Assembly (NCBI GenBank): GCA_910588545.1
Contig: CAJUOU010000001.1
Coordinates: forward strand, 547,975 to 611,974
DNA length: 64,000 nt
DNA from: an uncultured Christensenellaceae bacterium
GTDB taxonomy: Bacteria > Bacillota > Clostridia > Christensenellales > UBA3700
Direction of reading: 5' to 3'
Part shown: positions 3,618 through 54,276 of the stretch, piece after piece
Numbering within the stretch: position 1 is the first letter of the stretch
Layout of the letters: the number at the start of each line of letters is the position of its first letter
The notes under the pieces: generated by a model
Database searches by the model: none
Told to the model about the DNA's origin: nothing
The model's input: the letters and a program-made list of their open reading frames with translations, nothing else
Program-made: the position numbers and the translations under genes

Positions 3618-4322
3618 TTAGCAACAACTAATCAAATCGGCTCCGCAGCACTCACAACAGGTGTCACAGCAGTACAAAGTACAGCAAGTGTTGCAACATG
3701 CATCGGCATTTCTTTGAGAATTGCTCATTTGCGGCTCGGTATACCCACCTCTGTTTTGTTGTTGCGCACCGCTATATTGCTGACCTTGTTGATTTTGATT
3801 TGCAAACGGGTCAGATTGTGCCATATCTGCATTTAATTTGCGAAGAGCCTCGGCATACTTGTAATTTTTAGGGTCCATACTTACGCAAATTTCAAGCTGT
3901 GTCTTGCTATCGTTAAACCATTTTTTCTTGTAATAAACAATAGATTGGTAATAGTGCCACTCTGCATCCCTGCTATCAATACCATCAAGCTTGGACTGTG
4001 CCTCTACCAATTTATCTTCCTTGATAAGACGGCTTACATCCTCGTAAACTTTGTTTGAATCTGCAACAGTAGCTTTATCGTGTAAAATGTTTTGACATTC
4101 ATTGTATGCCCATTCTAACTCTTCAAGCTTTCTTATTGCTTCCGCACCTGCCTCTCCTTCAAGAAATCTATCTGCCTTATATTTGTTTTGCAAATTTGTA
4201 TAAGCGTCCTGCAATTCTGCAAAAGTCGCATCCTCACTGACACCTAATATTAAATACGGATTTTTTTGCAATTTTCTTTCCTCCCCAAAATATCTTGCGT
4301 TCTCATTAAAATGCCATACCAT
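3618..4322 (-). CDS. J-domain-like protein (HPD replaced by KAD) with Q-rich linker and poly-cysteine C-terminus
   Basis: NPYLILGVSEDATFAELQDAYTNLQNKYKADRF resembles a DnaJ J-domain but lacks HPD. The C-terminus is CCNTCCTLYCCDTCCECCGADLISCC. The start may instead be TTG at 4271, preceded by GGGGAGGAAAG. Confidence 0.7.
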   Translation of the reverse strand: MVWHFNENARYFGEERKLQKNPYLILGVSEDATFAELQDAYTNLQNKYKADRFLEGEAGAEAIRKLEELEWAYNECQNILHDKATVADSNKVYEDVSRLIKEDKLVEAQSKLDGIDSRDAEWHYYQSIVYYKKKWFNDSKTQLEICVSMDPKNYKYAEALRKLNADMAQSDPFANQNQQGQQYSGAQQQNRGGYTEPQMSNSQRNADACCNTCCTLYCCDTCCECCGADLISCC

Positions 4323-10718: not shown

Positions 10719-12434
10719 TTATTTTTTCTTTTTAGTAGTCTGCTTATTACTTTTGCTTATGTTTTTATTTGAATTAGTGTTTTTTTTGCTACTTGTTTTT
10801 TTACTAGATGAAGTGCCTTTTGAAAAATTCTTGCCGGATTTGGACGAACTTTTAGCTTTACTCCCTGCGACTTCTACATTAATTTTTCTGCCGTTAAAAC
10901 GCAAATCTTTCATTGCAAGAATATTTTCTTCCAAGCCTTTTTTTACTTCAACAAAGCTAAACTTTTCCAATATCTTAACATCAACAATGTCGTCAGCTGA
11001 AATATTTGCCTTTGAAGTTACAAAGTTAAGTACATCTTTTTCGTTTGCACCGTCCATTTCGCCAAATGTAATAAAAAATCTGGTGGAATCGACTTTTTGT
11101 TCTTCTTTTACTTCTTTTTTCTTTTGACCTTTGCTTTCGGTCATTTGCATATAGCTGTTGCCGTCAATTACAACTGCAAGCAAATCAAGCGGAGTATAGT
11201 TTGTATCATTTTCCTTATTAAATTTATCCAATTCTCGCAATAAAAAATCTTTTGTATTTTCTCTGTTTTTATCAACTATTTTAAATATATTAGATAGTTT
11301 TTTACTACCAAAATCCCTACTTGCCTGCATATTATCCATTTTTGTCATATTTGTTTTTGTTATCCTTTCAAAATTTTCTATTAGGTGCTTTTGTCCTTTT
11401 GTATAAAAAGTATACGCCACACCTGTTTTTTTGGCTCTTGCTGTTCTGCCTATCCTGTGCACATAAAATTCTTCGTCAATCGGTGGGTCAAAGTTAAAAA
11501 TTGCATCTATATCGCTAACGTCAATACCTCTTGCAACAACATCCGTTGCAACCAAAATATTGATTTCTCCCGCTCTGTAACGTTTCATAATTTTATCACG
11601 CTGACTTTGTTTTAAATCTCCGTGCAAACCTGCTGCTACATATCCAAATCCACAAAGGATTTCGGTAAGCTCGTCCACACGTTTTTTTGTATTGCAAAAA
11701 CAAATACACCGTTTATAGTCATTTATATCCAAAATATCTGTTATAAATGGTATTTTATCTGCCTCTTTACACTTTATTGCTATCTGTTCGATTTTCGGTT
11801 TCTCCGCGTTTGCAGTTGCTTGTATACGCACAGGGTCAACCGAGTATGTATCAATCATTTCCAAAATCGGTTTAGGCATTGTAGCACTAAACATAGCAAG
11901 TTGCTTATATTTTGGACAGGCATTCAAAATCTTATCGATATCAGGTTTGAAGCCCATATCCAACATTTCGTCTGCCTCGTCTAGAGTCACACATTCGATA
12001 TTGTGCAATTTTATAGTACGTCTTTCTATATGGTCAAGTGCTCTTCCCGGAGTTGCAATGATAATTTGAGGTTTTTTCCTTAAATTTGCAAGCTGTCTTT
12101 CTATATTTTGTCCGCCGTATACTGCACAAACGCGAACATTTTCGGTATACTTTAAAAACTTTTTAAATTCATTTGCTATTTGAATAACAAGTTCTCTTGT
12201 AGGGCAAAGTATCAATGTTTTTACATCTTTACTGTCTTTTGGCGTATTTGTTATAATTGGCAAAGCAAAAGCACAAGTCTTGCCTGTTCCCGTAGGTGCT
12301 TGCGCCACTATATCTCGTCCGTCCAACATTGCGGGGATAACTTGCGACTGAATTTGTGTGGGCTCGCTAAACCCCATATCACGAACAGCCTTTTTCAGTT
12401 CTTCCGCAATTTCAAAATTATTAAAATCTGTCAT
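10719..12434 (-). CDS. DEAD-box ATP-dependent RNA helicase with DbpA-like RNA-binding domain and K/S-rich tail
   Basis: 571 aa; AQAPTGTGKT, DEAD, SAT, HRIGRTAR motifs. Confidence 0.93.
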   Translation of the reverse strand: MTDFNNFEIAEELKKAVRDMGFSEPTQIQSQVIPAMLDGRDIVAQAPTGTGKTCAFALPIITNTPKDSKDVKTLILCPTRELVIQIANEFKKFLKYTENVRVCAVYGGQNIERQLANLRKKPQIIIATPGRALDHIERRTIKLHNIECVTLDEADEMLDMGFKPDIDKILNACPKYKQLAMFSATMPKPILEMIDTYSVDPVRIQATANAEKPKIEQIAIKCKEADKIPFITDILDINDYKRCICFCNTKKRVDELTEILCGFGYVAAGLHGDLKQSQRDKIMKRYRAGEINILVATDVVARGIDVSDIDAIFNFDPPIDEEFYVHRIGRTARAKKTGVAYTFYTKGQKHLIENFERITKTNMTKMDNMQASRDFGSKKLSNIFKIVDKNRENTKDFLLRELDKFNKENDTNYTPLDLLAVVIDGNSYMQMTESKGQKKKEVKEEQKVDSTRFFITFGEMDGANEKDVLNFVTSKANISADDIVDVKILEKFSFVEVKKGLEENILAMKDLRFNGRKINVEVAGSKAKSSSKSGKNFSKGTSSSKKTSSKKNTNSNKNISKSNKQTTKKKK

Positions 12435-43682: not shown

Positions 43683-43836
43683 ATAAATATTTTAACACAG
43701 TTAAACAAAAAAATCAAATTAACTAAACAAAGCATGCAGATGTTTTTTTTGCTATACCAAAATTCGAAGCAAAATGCTGGTTTTCAATGGCATTTCTACG
43801 GCTTATCACGACACAATTACAAATCAAAAATGGCAT

Positions 43837-43866
43837 AAAAAAACCACTAGACTACTTGCCTAGTGA
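43837..43866 (-). terminator. tRNA-operon terminator (copy in attL)
   Basis: cactag/ctagtg hairpin followed by T7 on the minus strand, just 3' of tRNA-Tyr. Confidence 0.7.
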
Positions 43867-43868
43867 TT

Positions 43869-43953
43869 TGGTGGGCAGGGGTGGATTCGAACCACCGAAA
43901 GCGCTGCTGACGGATTTACAGTCCGTTCCCTTTGGCCACTCGGGAACCTGCCC
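43869..43953 (-). tRNA. tRNA-Tyr (GTA), 85 nt with long variable arm and encoded CCA; left copy
   Basis: Reverse complement GGGCAGGTTCCCGAGTGGCCAAAGGGAACGGACTGTAAATCCGTC...GGTTCGAATCCACCCCTGCCCACCA folds as a class II tRNA with anticodon GUA. Confidence 0.9.
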
Positions 43954-43960
43954 ATATAAA

Positions 43961-44008
43961 TGGAGCTGGTGATCGGAATCGAACCAACAACCTGCTGATT
44001 ACAAATCA
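43961..44008 (-). pseudogene. 3' fragment of tRNA-Thr (TGT), from the anticodon loop to CCA, displaced by integration
   Basis: Identical to the 3' 48 nt of the intact tRNA-Thr at 54229-54304. The 5' half is missing. Confidence 0.9.
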
Positions 44009-44085
44009 AGCAAATAAAATGTGTAACCAATAACGCAAAGCGACCATACTATTTCTTTATTAGGAATAAAAAACTTTTCTCGTGA

Positions 44086-44222
44086 CACAAATTCCCCGCC
44101 CCTTGGGGCTTTATACAGGTGGAATTTGTGCAAATGCTCATAGGCGGTAGGACCAGCAAGGACCTACAAATCAACCCGATAGCCGAGCCCAAAGGAAGTC
44201 GCAGCGCGACGACTGCGGGAGT
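44086..44222 (+). other. GC-rich, hairpin-dense non-coding segment (candidate single-strand origin or structured RNA)
   Basis: 10-bp stem cacaaattcc/ggaatttgtg enclosing gcccc/ggggc, then gtagg/cctac and cgcag/ctgcg or gtcgc/gcgac stems. No plausible ORF. GC far above the local background. Confidence 0.4.
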
Positions 44223-44248
44223 AAAAAAGGGACTAATTCACTAGCCCC
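44223..44248 (-). terminator. terminator of the xre-lipoprotein operon
   Basis: Minus strand ggggctagtgaattagtccc followed by T6. Confidence 0.65.
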
Positions 44249-44257
44249 TTTGTTTTA

Positions 44258-44878
44258 TTAATTTGACGAAACATAAAAACCACAATCAGTGCAAACTTTA
44301 ACATTTGTAAAATTTATTTCTTTATATTCCTCATAAAAAAATCTAAAATCGCCATAAGCAGAAGTTGAACTAAAATAAATAGTTATATAGTCATTTTTGC
44401 TATTTGTTTTATGTGAAGTAATTTTTGCAGAAATTAAATTATTATGTTTACAATTACGCATCTCATTAGTTTTTTTTGCTTTTAATTTTACAAAATTTTC
44501 TGGGTTTTCATCAGACCATCCTGTACAAATTACTTTTGCGTGGTCATATTCTTTTGTTGTTTGTAAAGGTATATATTTTGAGTATAAACCATTCATAGGT
44601 ACTTCATTTTCAAATGTTTCAATTATTTTTCCGTCTAAATATAAATCACATTTATATTTTATAGCATTTAATTTTATATCAGAGTCGTGACAAATATCAA
44701 TCATATAATATTCGATTTTTCCTGTATCAGTATTTGTAGAAATGCCTGTTAAATTTGCTGTAGCAATAATATAATTATCTTCAACAAAGTATTTACCTTT
44801 AGGCAATGTACAGCTTGTTAATAAACATAGGCAAATAGACATTATTAAAAGTATAAATATATTTAAAATTTTTTTCAT
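44258..44878 (-). CDS. lipoprotein, unknown function (element-encoded, co-transcribed with the repressor)
   Basis: 206 aa; signal peptide with lipobox LLTSC. Its start is 1 nt after the xre stop. Confidence 0.7.
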   Translation of the reverse strand: MKKILNIFILLIMSICLCLLTSCTLPKGKYFVEDNYIIATANLTGISTNTDTGKIEYYMIDICHDSDIKLNAIKYKCDLYLDGKIIETFENEVPMNGLYSKYIPLQTTKEYDHAKVICTGWSDENPENFVKLKAKKTNEMRNCKHNNLISAKITSHKTNSKNDYITIYFSSTSAYGDFRFFYEEYKEINFTNVKVCTDCGFYVSSN

Positions 44879-44879
44879 A

Positions 44880-45164
44880 TCATTTACCTACCTTTATGTT
44901 AGAATTAGAAACGTTATTAAAGCTATTTGATATATGTACTGCTCTATTGTTGTAATCATTTAAACAAAGAATTTCGTTAGCGTCTAAGTCTAAAATAGCG
45001 CATAAGTTTGCTAGCGTGTCTAAAGCAGGCATTTTTTTTCCATGTACATAACAAGATATTTGTGTTTGATTAATTCCTAATGCTTGAGATATTTGTTGTT
45101 GAGTTAAACCACTTTGTTTTATTGCTTCTGCAATTTTTTTTTGTATTTGAATTAAACTTATCAT
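44880..45164 (-). CDS. XRE-family HTH repressor
   Basis: 94 aa from ATG 45164 (GAGGAG SD); LTQQQISQALGINQTQISCYVHGKKMP HTH_3 pattern. The longer track ORF (to 45347) crosses the promoter region. Confidence 0.85.
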   Translation of the reverse strand: MISLIQIQKKIAEAIKQSGLTQQQISQALGINQTQISCYVHGKKMPALDTLANLCAILDLDANEILCLNDYNNRAVHISNSFNNVSNSNIKVGK

Positions 45165-45188
45165 ATTGCTCCTCTTTTGTAAAAATTT

Positions 45189-45264
45189 TACCCGATAGGT
45201 ATAAAAAAAATCTTGACTTATACCTATTGGGTATGTTACTATTATAGTATACCTAATAGGTATA
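45189..45264. promoter_or_regulatory. divergent promoter region with three related operator palindromes
   Basis: tacccgataggtata (45189-45203), tatacctattgggta (45219-45233) and tatacctaataggtata (45248-45264) share TATACCTA/TAGGTATA half-sites. TTGACT at 45213-45218. Confidence 0.65.
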
Positions 45265-45297
45265 AATATTTTTAAACAAAAAGGAGCAAACAAACAA

Positions 45298-48602: not shown

Positions 48603-49070
48603 ATGAAAAAATTATTTTTTATATTGATTTTAATAGTATTTGTTTTTATTTTTTGTGTTTCTTGTACTGAAGATTCTTCAGACGTAAATATTGACGTTGA
48701 TTATACCTCTAATTTGAGTATTGATAACATATCGAATAACAATATTGAAATTCAATATACTTTGATACCAAGTGAAGCATATAAAGCAAATAATATTCCT
48801 AATGATACAATTTGTGCTTATATCTTTTCTGCATCGATATTGAGTGATAATTTAGAAGATAAAAGTTTATATTGGGATATATTTTGGTGTGACCCAACGA
48901 TAACAAATGATACAAATAATTATATTATTGTTGAACGTACAAGTGAGACAACTGCAAAAGTTATATGTAAAAAAGGCTTTAGAGTACCTTTAACTTTGAA
49001 AATTACAAGTAATACTAATCCAGATATAAATGCGAGCTGTAATATTAATTATGTATTAAAGGAGTTGTAA
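48603..49070 (+). CDS. secreted lipoprotein, unknown function
   Basis: 155 aa; signal peptide with lipobox FCVSC; GGAG SD. Confidence 0.65.
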   Translation: MKKLFFILILIVFVFIFCVSCTEDSSDVNIDVDYTSNLSIDNISNNNIEIQYTLIPSEAYKANNIPNDTICAYIFSASILSDNLEDKSLYWDIFWCDPTITNDTNNYIIVERTSETTAKVICKKGFRVPLTLKITSNTNPDINASCNINYVLKEL

Positions 49071-52085: not shown

Positions 52086-52892
52086 ATGAACAACCAAATT
52101 TTATTTAAAGAGTGGTTGAAAGATTTTTACGAGTACAAAAGTAAGAGAGTTAAGCCTAGTACTCTAAGAAATATAGGCATAGTGATTAGGTGTCACGTGC
52201 CTATATTTTTATACAACACTCCCCTTGTAAAAATAACAGACCAAGACTTGGAAAAAATGATATATGACGTTAAAGCAATGCGTATGCGACAATACACTTA
52301 TCAAGTCATTAATGAGGCTTTAGATAGGGCTGTAAAACGTAATATAATTGATTTTAACCCCATAACTAATTTGGATAGCATAAAACATAGACAACGTAAA
52401 GGACGTGCTTTAAACGCCGTAGAACGGGCTAAATTGCTTGAAAAGGTACAGCAACCTACTTTAAGGTTATTGTTCGAATTTTACATTTATAGCGGTTGTA
52501 GACGTTCAGAGGCATTATCTTTGACTTGGGACGATATAGATTTTGCAGGCAAAAAAATTATTATTCCCGGTACAAAAACTGAAGCAAGCGAAAGAGTGTT
52601 GCCAATGTCAAAACCTTTGCTTGAGATAATGAAAAAGTTGTCGCACAGTGCGACAACAAATAAGGTTTTTAACTACTCTCCAGATTATGTTTCTAAACAA
52701 TTTAAAAAGTATTGTCCTAAGCATAAACTACATGATTTAAGACATACTTTTGCGACAATATGTCTTGAAAGTGGTGTCAGTATTCGCGTTGTACAAAAGT
52801 GGTTGGGACATACCAGCATTGATACTACAGCAAGAATATATACACATGTAATTGACGAATTTCAACGTCGAGAAGCAGACAAAATATGTTAA
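52086..52892 (+). CDS. tyrosine site-specific integrase
   Basis: 268 aa; R...HDLRHTFAT...LGHTSIDTTARIYTH (R-H-R-Y catalytic pattern). Confidence 0.92.
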   Translation: MNNQILFKEWLKDFYEYKSKRVKPSTLRNIGIVIRCHVPIFLYNTPLVKITDQDLEKMIYDVKAMRMRQYTYQVINEALDRAVKRNIIDFNPITNLDSIKHRQRKGRALNAVERAKLLEKVQQPTLRLLFEFYIYSGCRRSEALSLTWDDIDFAGKKIIIPGTKTEASERVLPMSKPLLEIMKKLSHSATTNKVFNYSPDYVSKQFKKYCPKHKLHDLRHTFATICLESGVSIRVVQKWLGHTSIDTTARIYTHVIDEFQRREADKIC

Positions 52893-53794
52893 AGTATGAA
52901 GATTTAAAAAAGCGCATATATTATAATGAAAAATACATAGTGCCTAAGTTAAAGGCTGTTGAACAGGATAAACTTGCATTTAATATTGAGAATTGTTCGA
53001 AAACAAGTTGCATTGCGACTTGTTCCGGTTGTGGCGCTAAATATTATGCTGGCTCAAGTTATTGTAAATCAAGATATTGTGCTGTTTGCGCTAAACTTAG
53101 GGCATTGGCATGGCTTTGCAAGTTGGTCCCGTTGCTTGAGCAATATTCTAGCAATGGATATAAACTTTTTATGTTAAATTTTACAATAAAAGACCATAAG
53201 GACCTTGACTACATACTTAATAAGTTAATGAAAAGTTGGCGAATAATGACACATGACGATAAACGTTCTAAGAAAGAGTTTCGTCGCCTTAATGACGGGG
53301 GTATAAAATCTCTTGAGATTAAAATAGGCGAAAACTCTGGAATATGGCATCCTCATATACATAGTATAGTGCTTTTAAAGACTGAAGAAAAAGTCTACCA
53401 ATACAATGATTATAGAAAACTTTGGGAATATTGCTCTGCTCTTGCTTATGGTACAACTGACAAAGTCGGGAGTGTTGATATACGAGGACTTAAGGGGTAT
53501 AAGGGAGATATTGTATCCGCTGTAGTTGAAACATTTAAGTACATGACTAAACTAGATTGGTTAAATATCCCGGATGAACAATTACGTGAATTGTTTAAAG
53601 TTACAAATAATAGACGTTTTATATCTTCTTGGGGTGTACTTTATCGAGTTAATCAGCAAGTAGAGGCATTATTAAACGAAACTAGCGAAGATAAATTAAA
53701 AAATATGGCTTGTAAAGTCTGCGGTTGTACTGAGTTTGAACTTGAAAACCATTTAACTAAAATGTTGTCAGCAGACATACTTGATTTAAAATAG
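52886..53794 (+). CDS. rolling-circle replication initiator, pC194/pUB110 (Rep_1) type HUH endonuclease
   Basis: 302 aa; CKSRYCAVCAKLRALAW (compare CxxRFCPxCxWRR), FMLNFTIKD (motif 1), WHPHIHSIVLL (HUH), ETFKYMTK (Ex3Y catalytic pair). Confidence 0.85.
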   Translation: MLKYEDLKKRIYYNEKYIVPKLKAVEQDKLAFNIENCSKTSCIATCSGCGAKYYAGSSYCKSRYCAVCAKLRALAWLCKLVPLLEQYSSNGYKLFMLNFTIKDHKDLDYILNKLMKSWRIMTHDDKRSKKEFRRLNDGGIKSLEIKIGENSGIWHPHIHSIVLLKTEEKVYQYNDYRKLWEYCSALAYGTTDKVGSVDIRGLKGYKGDIVSAVVETFKYMTKLDWLNIPDEQLRELFKVTNNRRFISSWGVLYRVNQQVEALLNETSEDKLKNMACKVCGCTEFELENHLTKMLSADILDLK

Positions 53795-53805
53795 TAAGCA
53801 AAAAA

Positions 53806-53830
53806 AACGGGAGGTTTACCCCCGTTTTTT
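53806..53830 (+). terminator. terminator after rep
   Basis: aacgggagg-ttta-cccccgtt followed by T6. Confidence 0.75.
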
Positions 53831-53882
53831 GCTTGCTATTTTGAATTTTTACAAAAGCCAGATTTAAAATTTTGCTAAAATA

Positions 53883-53967
53883 ATGTGCATGTACGCGCGC
53901 ATATACACACGCACACCCGTAATTAATACACGTACGCGCACTTGCCAGCGCGCACGCACGCACGCAT
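53883..53967. repeat. three perfectly alternating purine-pyrimidine (CG/CA) tracts: 34, 16 and 20 nt
   Basis: 53883-53916, 53926-53941 and 53948-53967 alternate R/Y without exception. GC-rich island in about 30% GC DNA. Confidence 0.9.
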
Positions 53968-53982
53968 TTTTTGTTTTTCTGT

Positions 53983-53989
53983 CTTGATA
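53983..53989 (+). promoter_or_regulatory. candidate double-strand-origin nick site CTTGATA
   Basis: tttttctgtCTTGATAatat resembles the conserved pC194/pUB110 dso nick region. It lies about 190 nt downstream of rep on the rep coding strand. Confidence 0.6.
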
Positions 53990-54093
53990 ATATAGAAATA
54001 AGTGGGGTAAATGTTACACTTTGTTACCATAATTAAATAAGTGGTATTTTAGGCTAAAATTTAGGTAAAAAATAGGACTTTAAGACTAAGGCT

Positions 54094-54276
54094 AAAAATG
54101 GCATAAAAAAACCACTAGACTACTCGCCTAGTGATTTGGTGGGCAGGGGTGGATTCGAACCACCGAAAGCGCTGCTGACGGATTTACAGTCCGTTCCCTT
54201 TGGCCACTCGGGAACCTGCCCATATAAATGGAGCTGGTGATCGGAATCGAACCAACAACCTGCTGATTACAAATCA
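54094..54276. repeat. 183-bp direct repeat, right copy (attR)
   Basis: See the left copy. It ends inside the anticodon loop of the intact tRNA-Thr. Confidence 0.95.
54137..54221 (-). tRNA. tRNA-Tyr (GTA), right copy
   Basis: Identical to 43869-43953. Confidence 0.9.

Follow-up and report, generated by a model that had tools for sequence, protein, structure and literature searches.

Why should the replication origin of a mobile element be preceded by long runs in which purines and pyrimidines alternate without a break? The question is raised by a 64,000-nt stretch of contig CAJUOU010000001.1 from an uncultured Christensenellaceae bacterium (the whole stretch is called the window below). It contains an integrated element of 10,268 bp, bracketed by 183-nt direct repeats (43826-44008 and 54094-54276), whose genes are mostly on one strand and include those for a Zot-like protein, a single-stranded DNA-binding protein (SSB), a tyrosine integrase and a replication initiator (Rep). 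Its sole large non-coding region, adjoining attP, is the origin region: a putative nick site and three alternating purine/pyrimidine tracts (T1 to T3) lie in the right-hand non-coding arm, between the terminator that follows rep (53784-53846) and attR (Table 1). An earlier interpretation made from the letters alone (the sequence-only reading) had proposed a double-strand origin of rolling-circle replication here, with tracts prone to adopt non-B DNA. The explanation preferred below, to which we give a little under an even chance, is an ordinary Rep_1 origin accompanied by an accessory module that switches between B- and Z-DNA.

The tracts occupy an 85-bp block (53883-53967), and a run scan confirmed that all three (34, 16 and 20 nt) alternate without a single exception. 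From the step-alternation probability of the window, 0.489, the number of runs expected per 64 kb is 0.72, 0.04 and 2e-6 for minimum lengths of 16, 20 and 34 nt; the next-longest run in the window, inside the integrase gene, is 15 nt. The block is also the G+C-rich island in AT-rich DNA that had been described, at 56.5% G+C compared with 19-26% in the flanks and 30% in the element, and its CpG observed/expected ratio is 2.05 (1.04 in the window). The 32 pyrimidine-purine steps of the tracts are 12 CG, 12 CA, 3 TG and 5 TA. Unbroken alternation over 34, 16 and 20 bp, rich in CG and CA and poor in TA, is the composition looked for in Z-forming DNA, for which the minimum run is 8 bp (PMC3024258). 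A promoter search at the module gave weak consensus matches only, and there is no + strand gene downstream.

The origin itself appears to be of the ordinary pUB110/pC194 type. Rep had been assigned to this family from its motifs, and both the Rep_1 match (Table 1) and the residues bear this out: E144, the histidines H155/H157/H159, E215 and Y219 are invariant in 23 homologues and align with E163, HMH and E237/Y241 of pUB110 RepU, for which catalytic and metal-binding roles have been described (PMC5703833). The HUH motif, the metal-binding Glu and the Glu-x3-Tyr of Rep_1 replicons are thus all present. Overall identity to RepU is 23%, the best plasmid Rep match is 31% identical, and a tblastn search with Rep found no match in 50,697 phage records.

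The heptamer CTTGATA starts 188 nt past the rep stop codon on the rep-coding strand, in good agreement with the approximately 190 nt given before. By itself it is not special, with 20 copies in the window on both strands. The nick region as a whole aligns with CTTGATAcATATAGAAATAA of pUB110 and CTTGATAATAAGGGTAAC of pC194; the origins read ttgttctttcttatCTTGATAcATATAGAAATAAcg in pUB110, ccttttctttcttatCTTGATAATAAGGGTAAC in pC194 and tttttgtttttctgtCTTGATA-ATATAGAAATAAGTGGGGTAAA in the window. Shared by the window and pUB110 are the heptamer, a 12-mer following a 1-nt gap, GGTAA and a pyrimidine run on the 5' side. Aligned with CTTGATACATATAGAAATAA of pUB110, the CTTGATA-ATATAGAAATAA of the window needs one gap; a search of the window for the pUB110 22-mer with at most three mismatches came up empty because of this 1-nt gap. 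The exact 20-mer CTTGATACATATAGAAATAA is common to pUB110, L120 and L131 (L numbers denote contigs, among them relatives of the element found in Christensenella, other Clostridia metagenome-assembled genomes and gut metagenomes). The pyrimidine run just 5' of the heptamer has counterparts in pUB110 (ttgttctttcttat) and pC194 (ccttttctttcttat), and relatives retain its TTCTGT. A blastn search brought up two small Rep_1 plasmids, SAP087A and pRGI00731, in which the same motif stands upstream of rep, as TCTTGATAATATAG and TCTTGATACTATAGAAATAA. Since Rep keeps the catalytic residues of RepA and RepU and the nick region aligns, the proposed double-strand origin downstream of a Rep_1 initiator is accepted here: very probably, judging from these alignments, Rep cuts at 53986/53987 as RepU does in pUB110 and RepA in pC194. 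In pC194 the nick follows the G of CTTG, with TATTAT/CAAGATAAGAAAGA on the complementary strand, the slash marking the cut (PMC5037232), and the corresponding cleavage predicted for the element is CTTG/ATA, between G53986 and A53987.

Immediately 3' of this position is a better conserved sequence. GATAATATAGAAATAAGTGGGGTAAA occurs once in the window, where none is expected by chance, and is kept in every relative, including those in which the adjacent tracts are missing. It matches ATATAGAAATAA of pUB110 and the GGTAAC of pC194 and SAP087A, and every member of the family has the consensus ATA(C)ATATA-G/T-AAA-T/C-AAGTG-N-GGTAA. This block is probably the recognition sequence of Rep. The heptamer, which had been taken as the conserved core of the nick site, is indeed present at the pUB110 and pC194 origins, but among the relatives it takes the forms CTAGATA, CTTGAGA, GTTCATA, TTTAATA and ATTTATA. 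Because the 3' block is conserved while the heptamer varies, recognition by Rep is suggested to lie 3' of the nick; in phiX174 the recognition sequence is likewise 3' of the nick. The variable heptamer also means that the exact cleavage position is carried over from pC194. Even the near-identical L131 (4336-4342) and L132 (3384-3390) differ here, with CTTGATA and CTTGAGA, and the four bases before ATA across the family are CTTG, CTAG, GTTC, TTTA and ATTT. Two of these, CTTG and GTTC, serve IS91-family transposases as target tetranucleotides. A search for the origin motif in IMG/VR returned only chance matches resembling ribosome-binding sites.

The comparison of homologous elements that had been recommended as a check gave a mixed answer: most relatives, with Rep 47-87% identical and hosts of 31-55% G+C, carry tracts, but pUB110 and pC194 do not, nor does the L131 clade in the DNA available, and in L004/L151 the tracts are displaced. 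Where present upstream of the nick, they are 18-39 nt long and 11-58 nt away. The distance to the predicted nick is 11-22 nt in the window clade (L003, L038/L039), L118, L119, L120, L126 and L007/L040. It is 50-58 nt in L005 and the L006 clade (L006/L041/L042/L121), where a small hairpin intervenes. The tracts of the L006 clade are G/T-rich on the rep strand, in the opposite sense to all others. No tract precedes the origin in the L004/L128(=L151) clade; tracts of 13-21 nt are instead found 20-70 nt inside attL, which on the circle puts them about 290 nt downstream of the nick, across attP. L127, a 3.1-kb plasmid-like contig with ParE/Phd and without an integrase, carries, 9 nt from its TCTGTCTTGATA motif, an alternating palindrome that is perfect over arms of 14 nt. 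Neither pUB110 nor pC194 has an alternating run of 12 nt or more near its origin, and pC194 has none anywhere on the plasmid, which agrees with the impression that such tracts are unusual for pC194-type origins. Given this distribution among the relatives, pUB110 and pC194, the module is best regarded as a separate accessory part specific to this lineage: widespread in it, movable, invertible and not obligatory.

Two side observations concern sequences of related kinds. At the usual tract position, L131 (4295-4335) has two homopyrimidine mirror repeats, TTTTCTTTCTTTT, which belong to another class prone to leave the B form (triplex). In IMG/VR, the 18-mer ACGCACGCACACGCACGC has exact matches in 48 contigs, none with a related Rep, so this type of tract is not diagnostic of the element family. 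One of these contigs, L160 (tract at 3729-3746), is a microvirus with an F capsid and a rolling-circle Rep, where the tract is intergenic; another, L153, is a tailed phage with 60-72-nt tracts at both ends (1-60 and 11947-12018).

What has been conserved in the module can be seen in the window, L003, L038 and L039, where it aligns gap-free. Between the window and L038, whose Rep proteins are 87% identical, the tracts are 29% diverged and the nick block 4.5%. The 70 tract columns comprise 50 identical, 17 transitions and 3 transversions; the nick block with its downstream sequence has 126 identical, no transitions and 6 transversions; and the fourfold sites of rep have 45 identical, 11 transitions and 27 transversions. 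The transition excess in the tracts is significant against the rep fourfold sites (Fisher p=7e-5), against those of rep and int together (15 transitions, 35 transversions; p=4e-5), and in the comparison with L003 (p=2e-5). Purine/pyrimidine class is kept in 67 of 70 tract columns (96%) and at 127 of 162 fourfold sites (78%; p=8e-4), with base identity nearly equal in the two sets (71% and 69%). Other pairs show the same tendency: L151/L004 tracts have 7 transitions and 2 transversions beside a transversion-rich flank, and L006/L041 have 3 and 0. In all likelihood, as far as these alignments can tell, selection keeps the alternation and the CG/CA-rich make-up of 53883-53967, and not its base sequence. 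Tract length, alternation and G+C richness being held while the bases are not, the pattern speaks against base-specific iterons as well as against a repeat that decays neutrally.

The second of these alternatives, a functionless simple repeat in decay whose transition excess comes from mutation bias such as CpG deamination, would be in keeping with the fact that transitions are the main mutations at G/C positions. Excluding A-T transversions from the neutral baseline weakens the L038 test to p=0.08, and the module is missing from pUB110, pC194 and the available L131 DNA. The L003 test is still at p=0.003 under the same exclusion, however, and by our own estimate about five A-T transversions would be expected in the tracts where one is seen. 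The module also persists down to a Rep identity of 47% and across hosts of 31-55% G+C, stays G+C-rich against an AT bias, and has exactly the same length, gap-free, in the window, L003 and L038, as a slipping repeat would not. We consider this explanation highly improbable.

The main rival is that the tandem CGCA/ACGC units and the GTAAT-N-ATTAC spacer form a binding array for Rep, an XRE repressor or a host factor, with alternation a by-product. Several features would suit it. (CGCA)n dominates the nick-proximal tract in most clades, and the proximal CACGCACGCA of T3 is common to the window, L003, L038 and L119. An operator-like palindrome recurs between the tracts: the AT-rich spacer between T1 and T2 in the window, ccGTAATTA, is part of a GTAAT-N-ATTAC-like centre also seen in L038 (GTAATAATTAC), L118 and L120 (GCGTAATTATTACGC) and L126 (CGTAATAATTACG). 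The excess of CA over TG steps and the CG-CA order, taken up below, also fit. Among HUH proteins, Rep of adeno-associated virus (AAV) and NS1 of minute virus of mice (MVM) bind (GAGC)n and (ACCA)n arrays beside their nick sites. Rep_1 initiators coat origins cooperatively, the 'bind' locus of pMV158 consists of direct repeats 84 bp from the nick, and about six RepU monomers coat the pUB110 origin (PMC5703833). The substitutions tell against an array of this kind: the tracts diverge far faster than the nick block, with shifts of the CG/CA register, and transitions are nearly neutral in them, which is unexpected for base-specific contacts. Nor are the distances to the nick (11, 13, 14, 16-19, 22 and 50-58 nt) in helical phase; one clade has the module the other way round, and another has it across attP; and L007, L120 and L127 have mostly (CG)n rather than CGCA. 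A binding array is rated as rather unlikely.

Alternating sequences are self-complementary at the purine/pyrimidine level, and as imperfect palindromes the tracts might form a cruciform, or a hairpin in the displaced strand, that marks the origin, or might serve as a lagging-strand origin or packaging signal. Inverted repeats present or mark the origin in pT181 (IR-II) and pMV158 (IR-I), and single-strand origins are usually found just upstream of double-strand ones (PMC5037232). Predicted folding of the single strand gives little encouragement. For the window module, z-scores relative to dinucleotide shuffles were +1.09 and +1.25 on the + strand and +0.29 on the - strand; L003, at +2.67, folds worse than all 200 of its shuffles; and L038, L118, L119, L126 and L151 range from +0.2 to +1.4. 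For 10 of the 12 relatives, the predicted fold of the module is not better than that of its shuffles, the outliers being L127 (z=-4.0), the only one with a strong palindrome, and, weakly, L005 (z=-1.9), which carries GCACGTATACGTGC. Apart from these two, a hairpin or cruciform is ruled out as the common explanation. The C/A-rich strand is unable to pair with itself, and the nick is not within a hairpin of the kind found at cruciform origins such as those of pT181 and pMV158; origins of the pC194 family are typically without one at the nick (PMC5037232). A role of this kind in the element is most improbable.

There remains the duplex itself. With published B-Z energies of 0.7 (CG), 1.3 (CA/TG) and 2.5 (TA) kcal/mol per dinucleotide and 5 per junction (PMC3024258), T1 would cost 22 kcal/mol to convert, plus 10 for its two junctions. 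A simple estimate, made with the near-identical values 0.66 (CG) and 1.4 (CA/TG) kcal/mol, gives a cost of 0.49-0.71 kcal/mol per bp for the tracts and, for the 10,268-bp circle, places the critical superhelical density of each tract between -0.039 and -0.048, matching that of (CA)16. A three-state model, in which melting competes with the B-Z transition (as in PMC3343103), was also run; it is crude, allowing whole-tract flips and a single melted run, with assumed melting energetics. At 0.15 M salt it has T3, T1 and T2 flip at about -0.04, -0.05 and -0.06, as the first transitions anywhere in the circle. Over both calculations, the thresholds are -0.042 to -0.05 for T1, -0.048 to -0.06 for T2 and about -0.04 for T3, within total plasmid supercoiling and beyond the usual estimates of its unconstrained part. 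Once the tracts have flipped, the model shows no melting at this salt up to -0.07; with the tracts removed, melting begins from -0.06 at about 48610-48620. In this model, superhelical stress would be taken up first and at the lowest cost by the module, which resembles a sink rather than a device for opening the nick. The suggestion that the tracts unwind or expose the nick site is consequently not upheld: stress is predicted to be absorbed and melting suppressed, and the position of the tracts is variable (some 290 nt away in L004/L151).

The proposed sequence of events is then as follows. After excision, the Rep_1 initiator would recognise the conserved block ATAATATAGAAATAAGTGGGGTAAA and cut the + strand at CTTG/ATA. 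When the circle reaches a superhelical density of about -0.04 to -0.06, the three tracts would switch from B- to Z-DNA, together absorbing about 12 of its 50-60 superhelical turns. The module would in this way act as a local supercoil sink or torque clamp, setting the torsional state for nicking by Rep and for recombination by the integrase, and would protect the AT-rich circle from melting elsewhere. Such a Z-switch is, on the modelling, the likeliest single reason for the kept alternation, though we would put it somewhat short of an even chance; it is the best supported reading of the tracts, plausible rather than proven. That Rep nicks at this site, that Z-DNA forms in cells and that the element benefits is what we infer, beyond the homology, conservation and energetics set out above. 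The broader view that this is a natural B-Z switch under selection, a cis-acting torsional buffer for integrative rolling-circle elements of gut Clostridia, is possible but doubtful.

Several observations weigh against a Z-switch at an ordinary origin. The nick heptamer is not conserved within the family, and the L131 clade has no tracts in the available DNA. A-T transversions dominate the neutral set of substitutions, and the tests weaken to the values given above when these are excluded. On one strand there are 90 CA steps to 20 TG steps, which a pure Z-DNA constraint does not explain, and the same is true of the period-4 order, CG being followed by CA in 56% of cases where 33% is expected. 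The strand asymmetry, the period-4 order and the palindromic centre would fit either avoidance of self-pairing in the displaced strand or a protein that reads the shape of a (CGCA)n array, the latter being the form in which the binding array is retained as main rival. At 0.01 M salt, AT-rich melting at about 48610-48620 wins until -0.06 and the tracts do not flip before that value is reached; as the nick is never the melting site in the model, a benefit to replication is not explained. The unconstrained superhelical density in living bacteria is usually put at about -0.025 to -0.03; since this is below the predicted threshold, Z-DNA would need transient stress. A supercoil sink might also be expected to scale with the circle, and comparison by eye of tract length with element size showed no clear trend, L126 looking small for its 75 nt of tracts.

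The alternation might also serve some other property of the duplex: a gyrase or topoisomerase site that supercoils the new replicative form, an unusually deformable stretch that would help the DNA loop between origin and attP, or an enhancer of integrase recombination. Type II topoisomerases favour alternating purine/pyrimidine DNA. The flexible position of the module within the origin-attP region fits action in cis at a distance, and initiators of the Rep type need a supercoiled substrate (PMC5703833). On the other hand, the most deformable step, TA, is rarer than the AT-rich background would lead one to expect, and L127, without an integrase, keeps an alternating element beside its origin. 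We regard such roles as improbable. Integrase arm sites, considered separately, are unlikely: the distance to the crossover ranges from about 20 to about 390 nt, and L127 is again an exception.

Comparison with described systems brings out what is ordinary and what is not. The pUB110 origin resembles that of the element in initiator family, catalytic residues, nick region (ttctttcttatCTTGATAcATATAGAAATAA compared with tttttctgtCTTGATA-ATATAGAAATAA), 5' pyrimidine run and lack of a hairpin at the nick. It differs in lying upstream of rep and overlapping its promoter, where that of the element is 188 nt downstream and next to attP, and in having no alternating tract nearby. The pC194 origin has CTTG/ATA in common with it, together with the pyrimidine run on the 5' side of the nick and GGTAA(C/A) on the 3' side; it is set apart by an inverted repeat, with arms of 11 nt, immediately 3' of the nick. 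The pMV158 'bind' locus and the AAV (GAGC)n and MVM (ACCA)n repeats are, like the module, accessory arrays near an HUH nick site, the tetranucleotide period of the parvovirus arrays recalling (CGCA)n; theirs are conserved in sequence and specifically bound, whereas the bases of the module drift by transitions and its orientation and position vary. Engineered (CG)n and (CA)n inserts, and the SIBZ and BDZtrans theory, deal with the same sequence class and the same predicted onset as (CA)16, but those are artificial or eukaryotic promoter elements, and the module is a natural part of a bacterial mobile element with its alternation apparently under selection. The integrated inoviruses of Gram-positive hosts (Roux et al., 2019; Enterocloster) are likewise small, with most genes on one strand, a Zot/pI-like ATPase, a rolling-circle Rep, an integrase and direct repeats at tRNA genes; the Rep of the element differs in finding no counterpart among the phage records searched, and its Zot-like matches are weak. 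A literature search found no description of origin structure in inovirus-like elements of Gram-positive bacteria, and none of Z-DNA or alternating tracts at rolling-circle or Rep_1 origins.

To our knowledge, the role of Z-DNA in bacteria is open, almost all of the evidence coming from artificial inserts or from counts of Z-prone sequences, and we know of no Z-DNA element in a prokaryotic mobile element that is backed by evolutionary evidence beyond sequence propensity. A natural module with a clean evolutionary signature (transitions free, length and alternation held) would therefore be of interest, the more so as it adjoins the sites of two topology-dependent reactions, nicking for rolling-circle replication and site-specific recombination. 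Rep together with a mini-replicon of a few hundred bp would make a small and tractable system for B-Z regulation of an origin. If protein binding is true instead, the module is still a new accessory part of Rep_1 origins, for which the regulating mechanism has been described as unclear (PMC5037232). The comparisons also define a previously unannotated int-rep-origin family that includes inovirus-like prophages, minimal integrative elements and one plasmid in human-gut Clostridia.

Table 1. Features of the integrated element, with positions in the window.
Feature	Position	Strand	Evidence or remark
attL copy of the 183-nt repeat	43826-44008	-	repeat and tRNA calls
G+C-rich structured non-coding region just inside attL	44009-44270	+	single-stranded DNA fold -36 kcal/mol, z=-2.5
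Tyrosine integrase, 268 amino acids	52086-52892	+	Pfam Phage_integrase E=6e-27, and SAM-like N-terminal domain
rep, Rep_1 (pC194/pUB110-type) HUH rolling-circle initiator, 302 amino acids	52886-53794	+	Pfam PF01446 E=4.4e-21
Hairpin terminator after rep	53784-53846		inverted repeat I17, 22-nt arms, 91% complementary
Alternating tract T1, 34 bp	53883-53916		run scan
AT-rich spacer ccGTAATTA between T1 and T2	53917-53925		read directly
Alternating tract T2, 16 bp	53926-53941		run scan
Alternating tract T3, 20 bp, GCG(CGCA)4T, nearest the nick	53948-53967		run scan
T-rich, pyrimidine-rich run TTTTTGTTTTTCTGT just 5' of the nick motif	53968-53982	+	matching runs in pUB110 and pC194
CTTGATA nick motif	53983-53989	+	same heptamer at pUB110 and pC194 origins
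Conserved block 3' of the nick, GATAATATAGAAATAAGTGGGGTAAA	53986-54011	+	unique in the window, kept in all relatives
attR copy of the 183-nt repeat	54094-54276	-	repeat D1, 99% identical; tRNA calls; terminator

The rest of the element appears, from its gene content, to be that of an integrated inovirus-like rolling-circle element in a Christensenella-like gut Clostridia genome, with the qualification that its Zot-like matches are weak: the P-loop protein at 50490-51311 matches phrog_197 at E=5e-6, and the Pfam Zot matches of the relatives are weak as well. Several membrane open reading frames (ORFs) are found upstream in the element, and no coat protein was identified among its ORFs. The SSB gene precedes the integrase-rep pair. 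Integrase and rep are adjacent in all integrated relatives; their 7-nt overlap of stop and start (52886-52892), a junction also kept in all of these, suggests translational coupling. The hairpin that follows rep is a G+C-rich stem-loop with T-runs on both sides and a terminator-like match on the minus strand, and its stem is preserved in relatives with changed bases. Some elements of about 4-5 kb without Zot-like or coat genes (L123, L151, L131) have the int-rep-origin module as well; they could be satellites or integrative rolling-circle plasmids.

The 183-nt repeat, unusually long for an att site, contains the terminator of the tRNA operon, the whole of tRNA-Tyr and the 3' 48 nt of tRNA-Thr(TGT). 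A single base distinguishes the copies (T at 43857, C at 54125), and because the repeat holds a complete tRNA-Tyr, the lysogen has two tRNA-Tyr genes. An Rfam scan of the whole element gave the tRNAs as the only significant matches.

The structured region just inside attL (44009-44270) adjoins the origin and attP once the element is circular, and is a candidate single-strand origin or packaging signal, although neither ssoA nor ssoU features can be recognised in it and Rfam gives no match. In L004 (~2690-2720) and L151 (~1243-1258), too, attL is followed by a hairpin of this type, TTCCCCG...CGGGG. Three related palindromes, TACCCGATAGGTA, TATACCTATTGGGTAT and TATACCTAATAGGTATA, lie at ~45195-45270, between a divergent XRE-type repressor gene (44880-45170, - strand) and the first + strand ORF (45298), and are probably operators of the repressor. 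The structured region and the repressor gene are separated by a 206-amino-acid ORF (44258-44878, - strand) that is oriented against the rest of the element and has a lipoprotein-like signal (LLTSC); it may be an accessory gene of benefit to the host (a moron) or a superinfection-exclusion gene.

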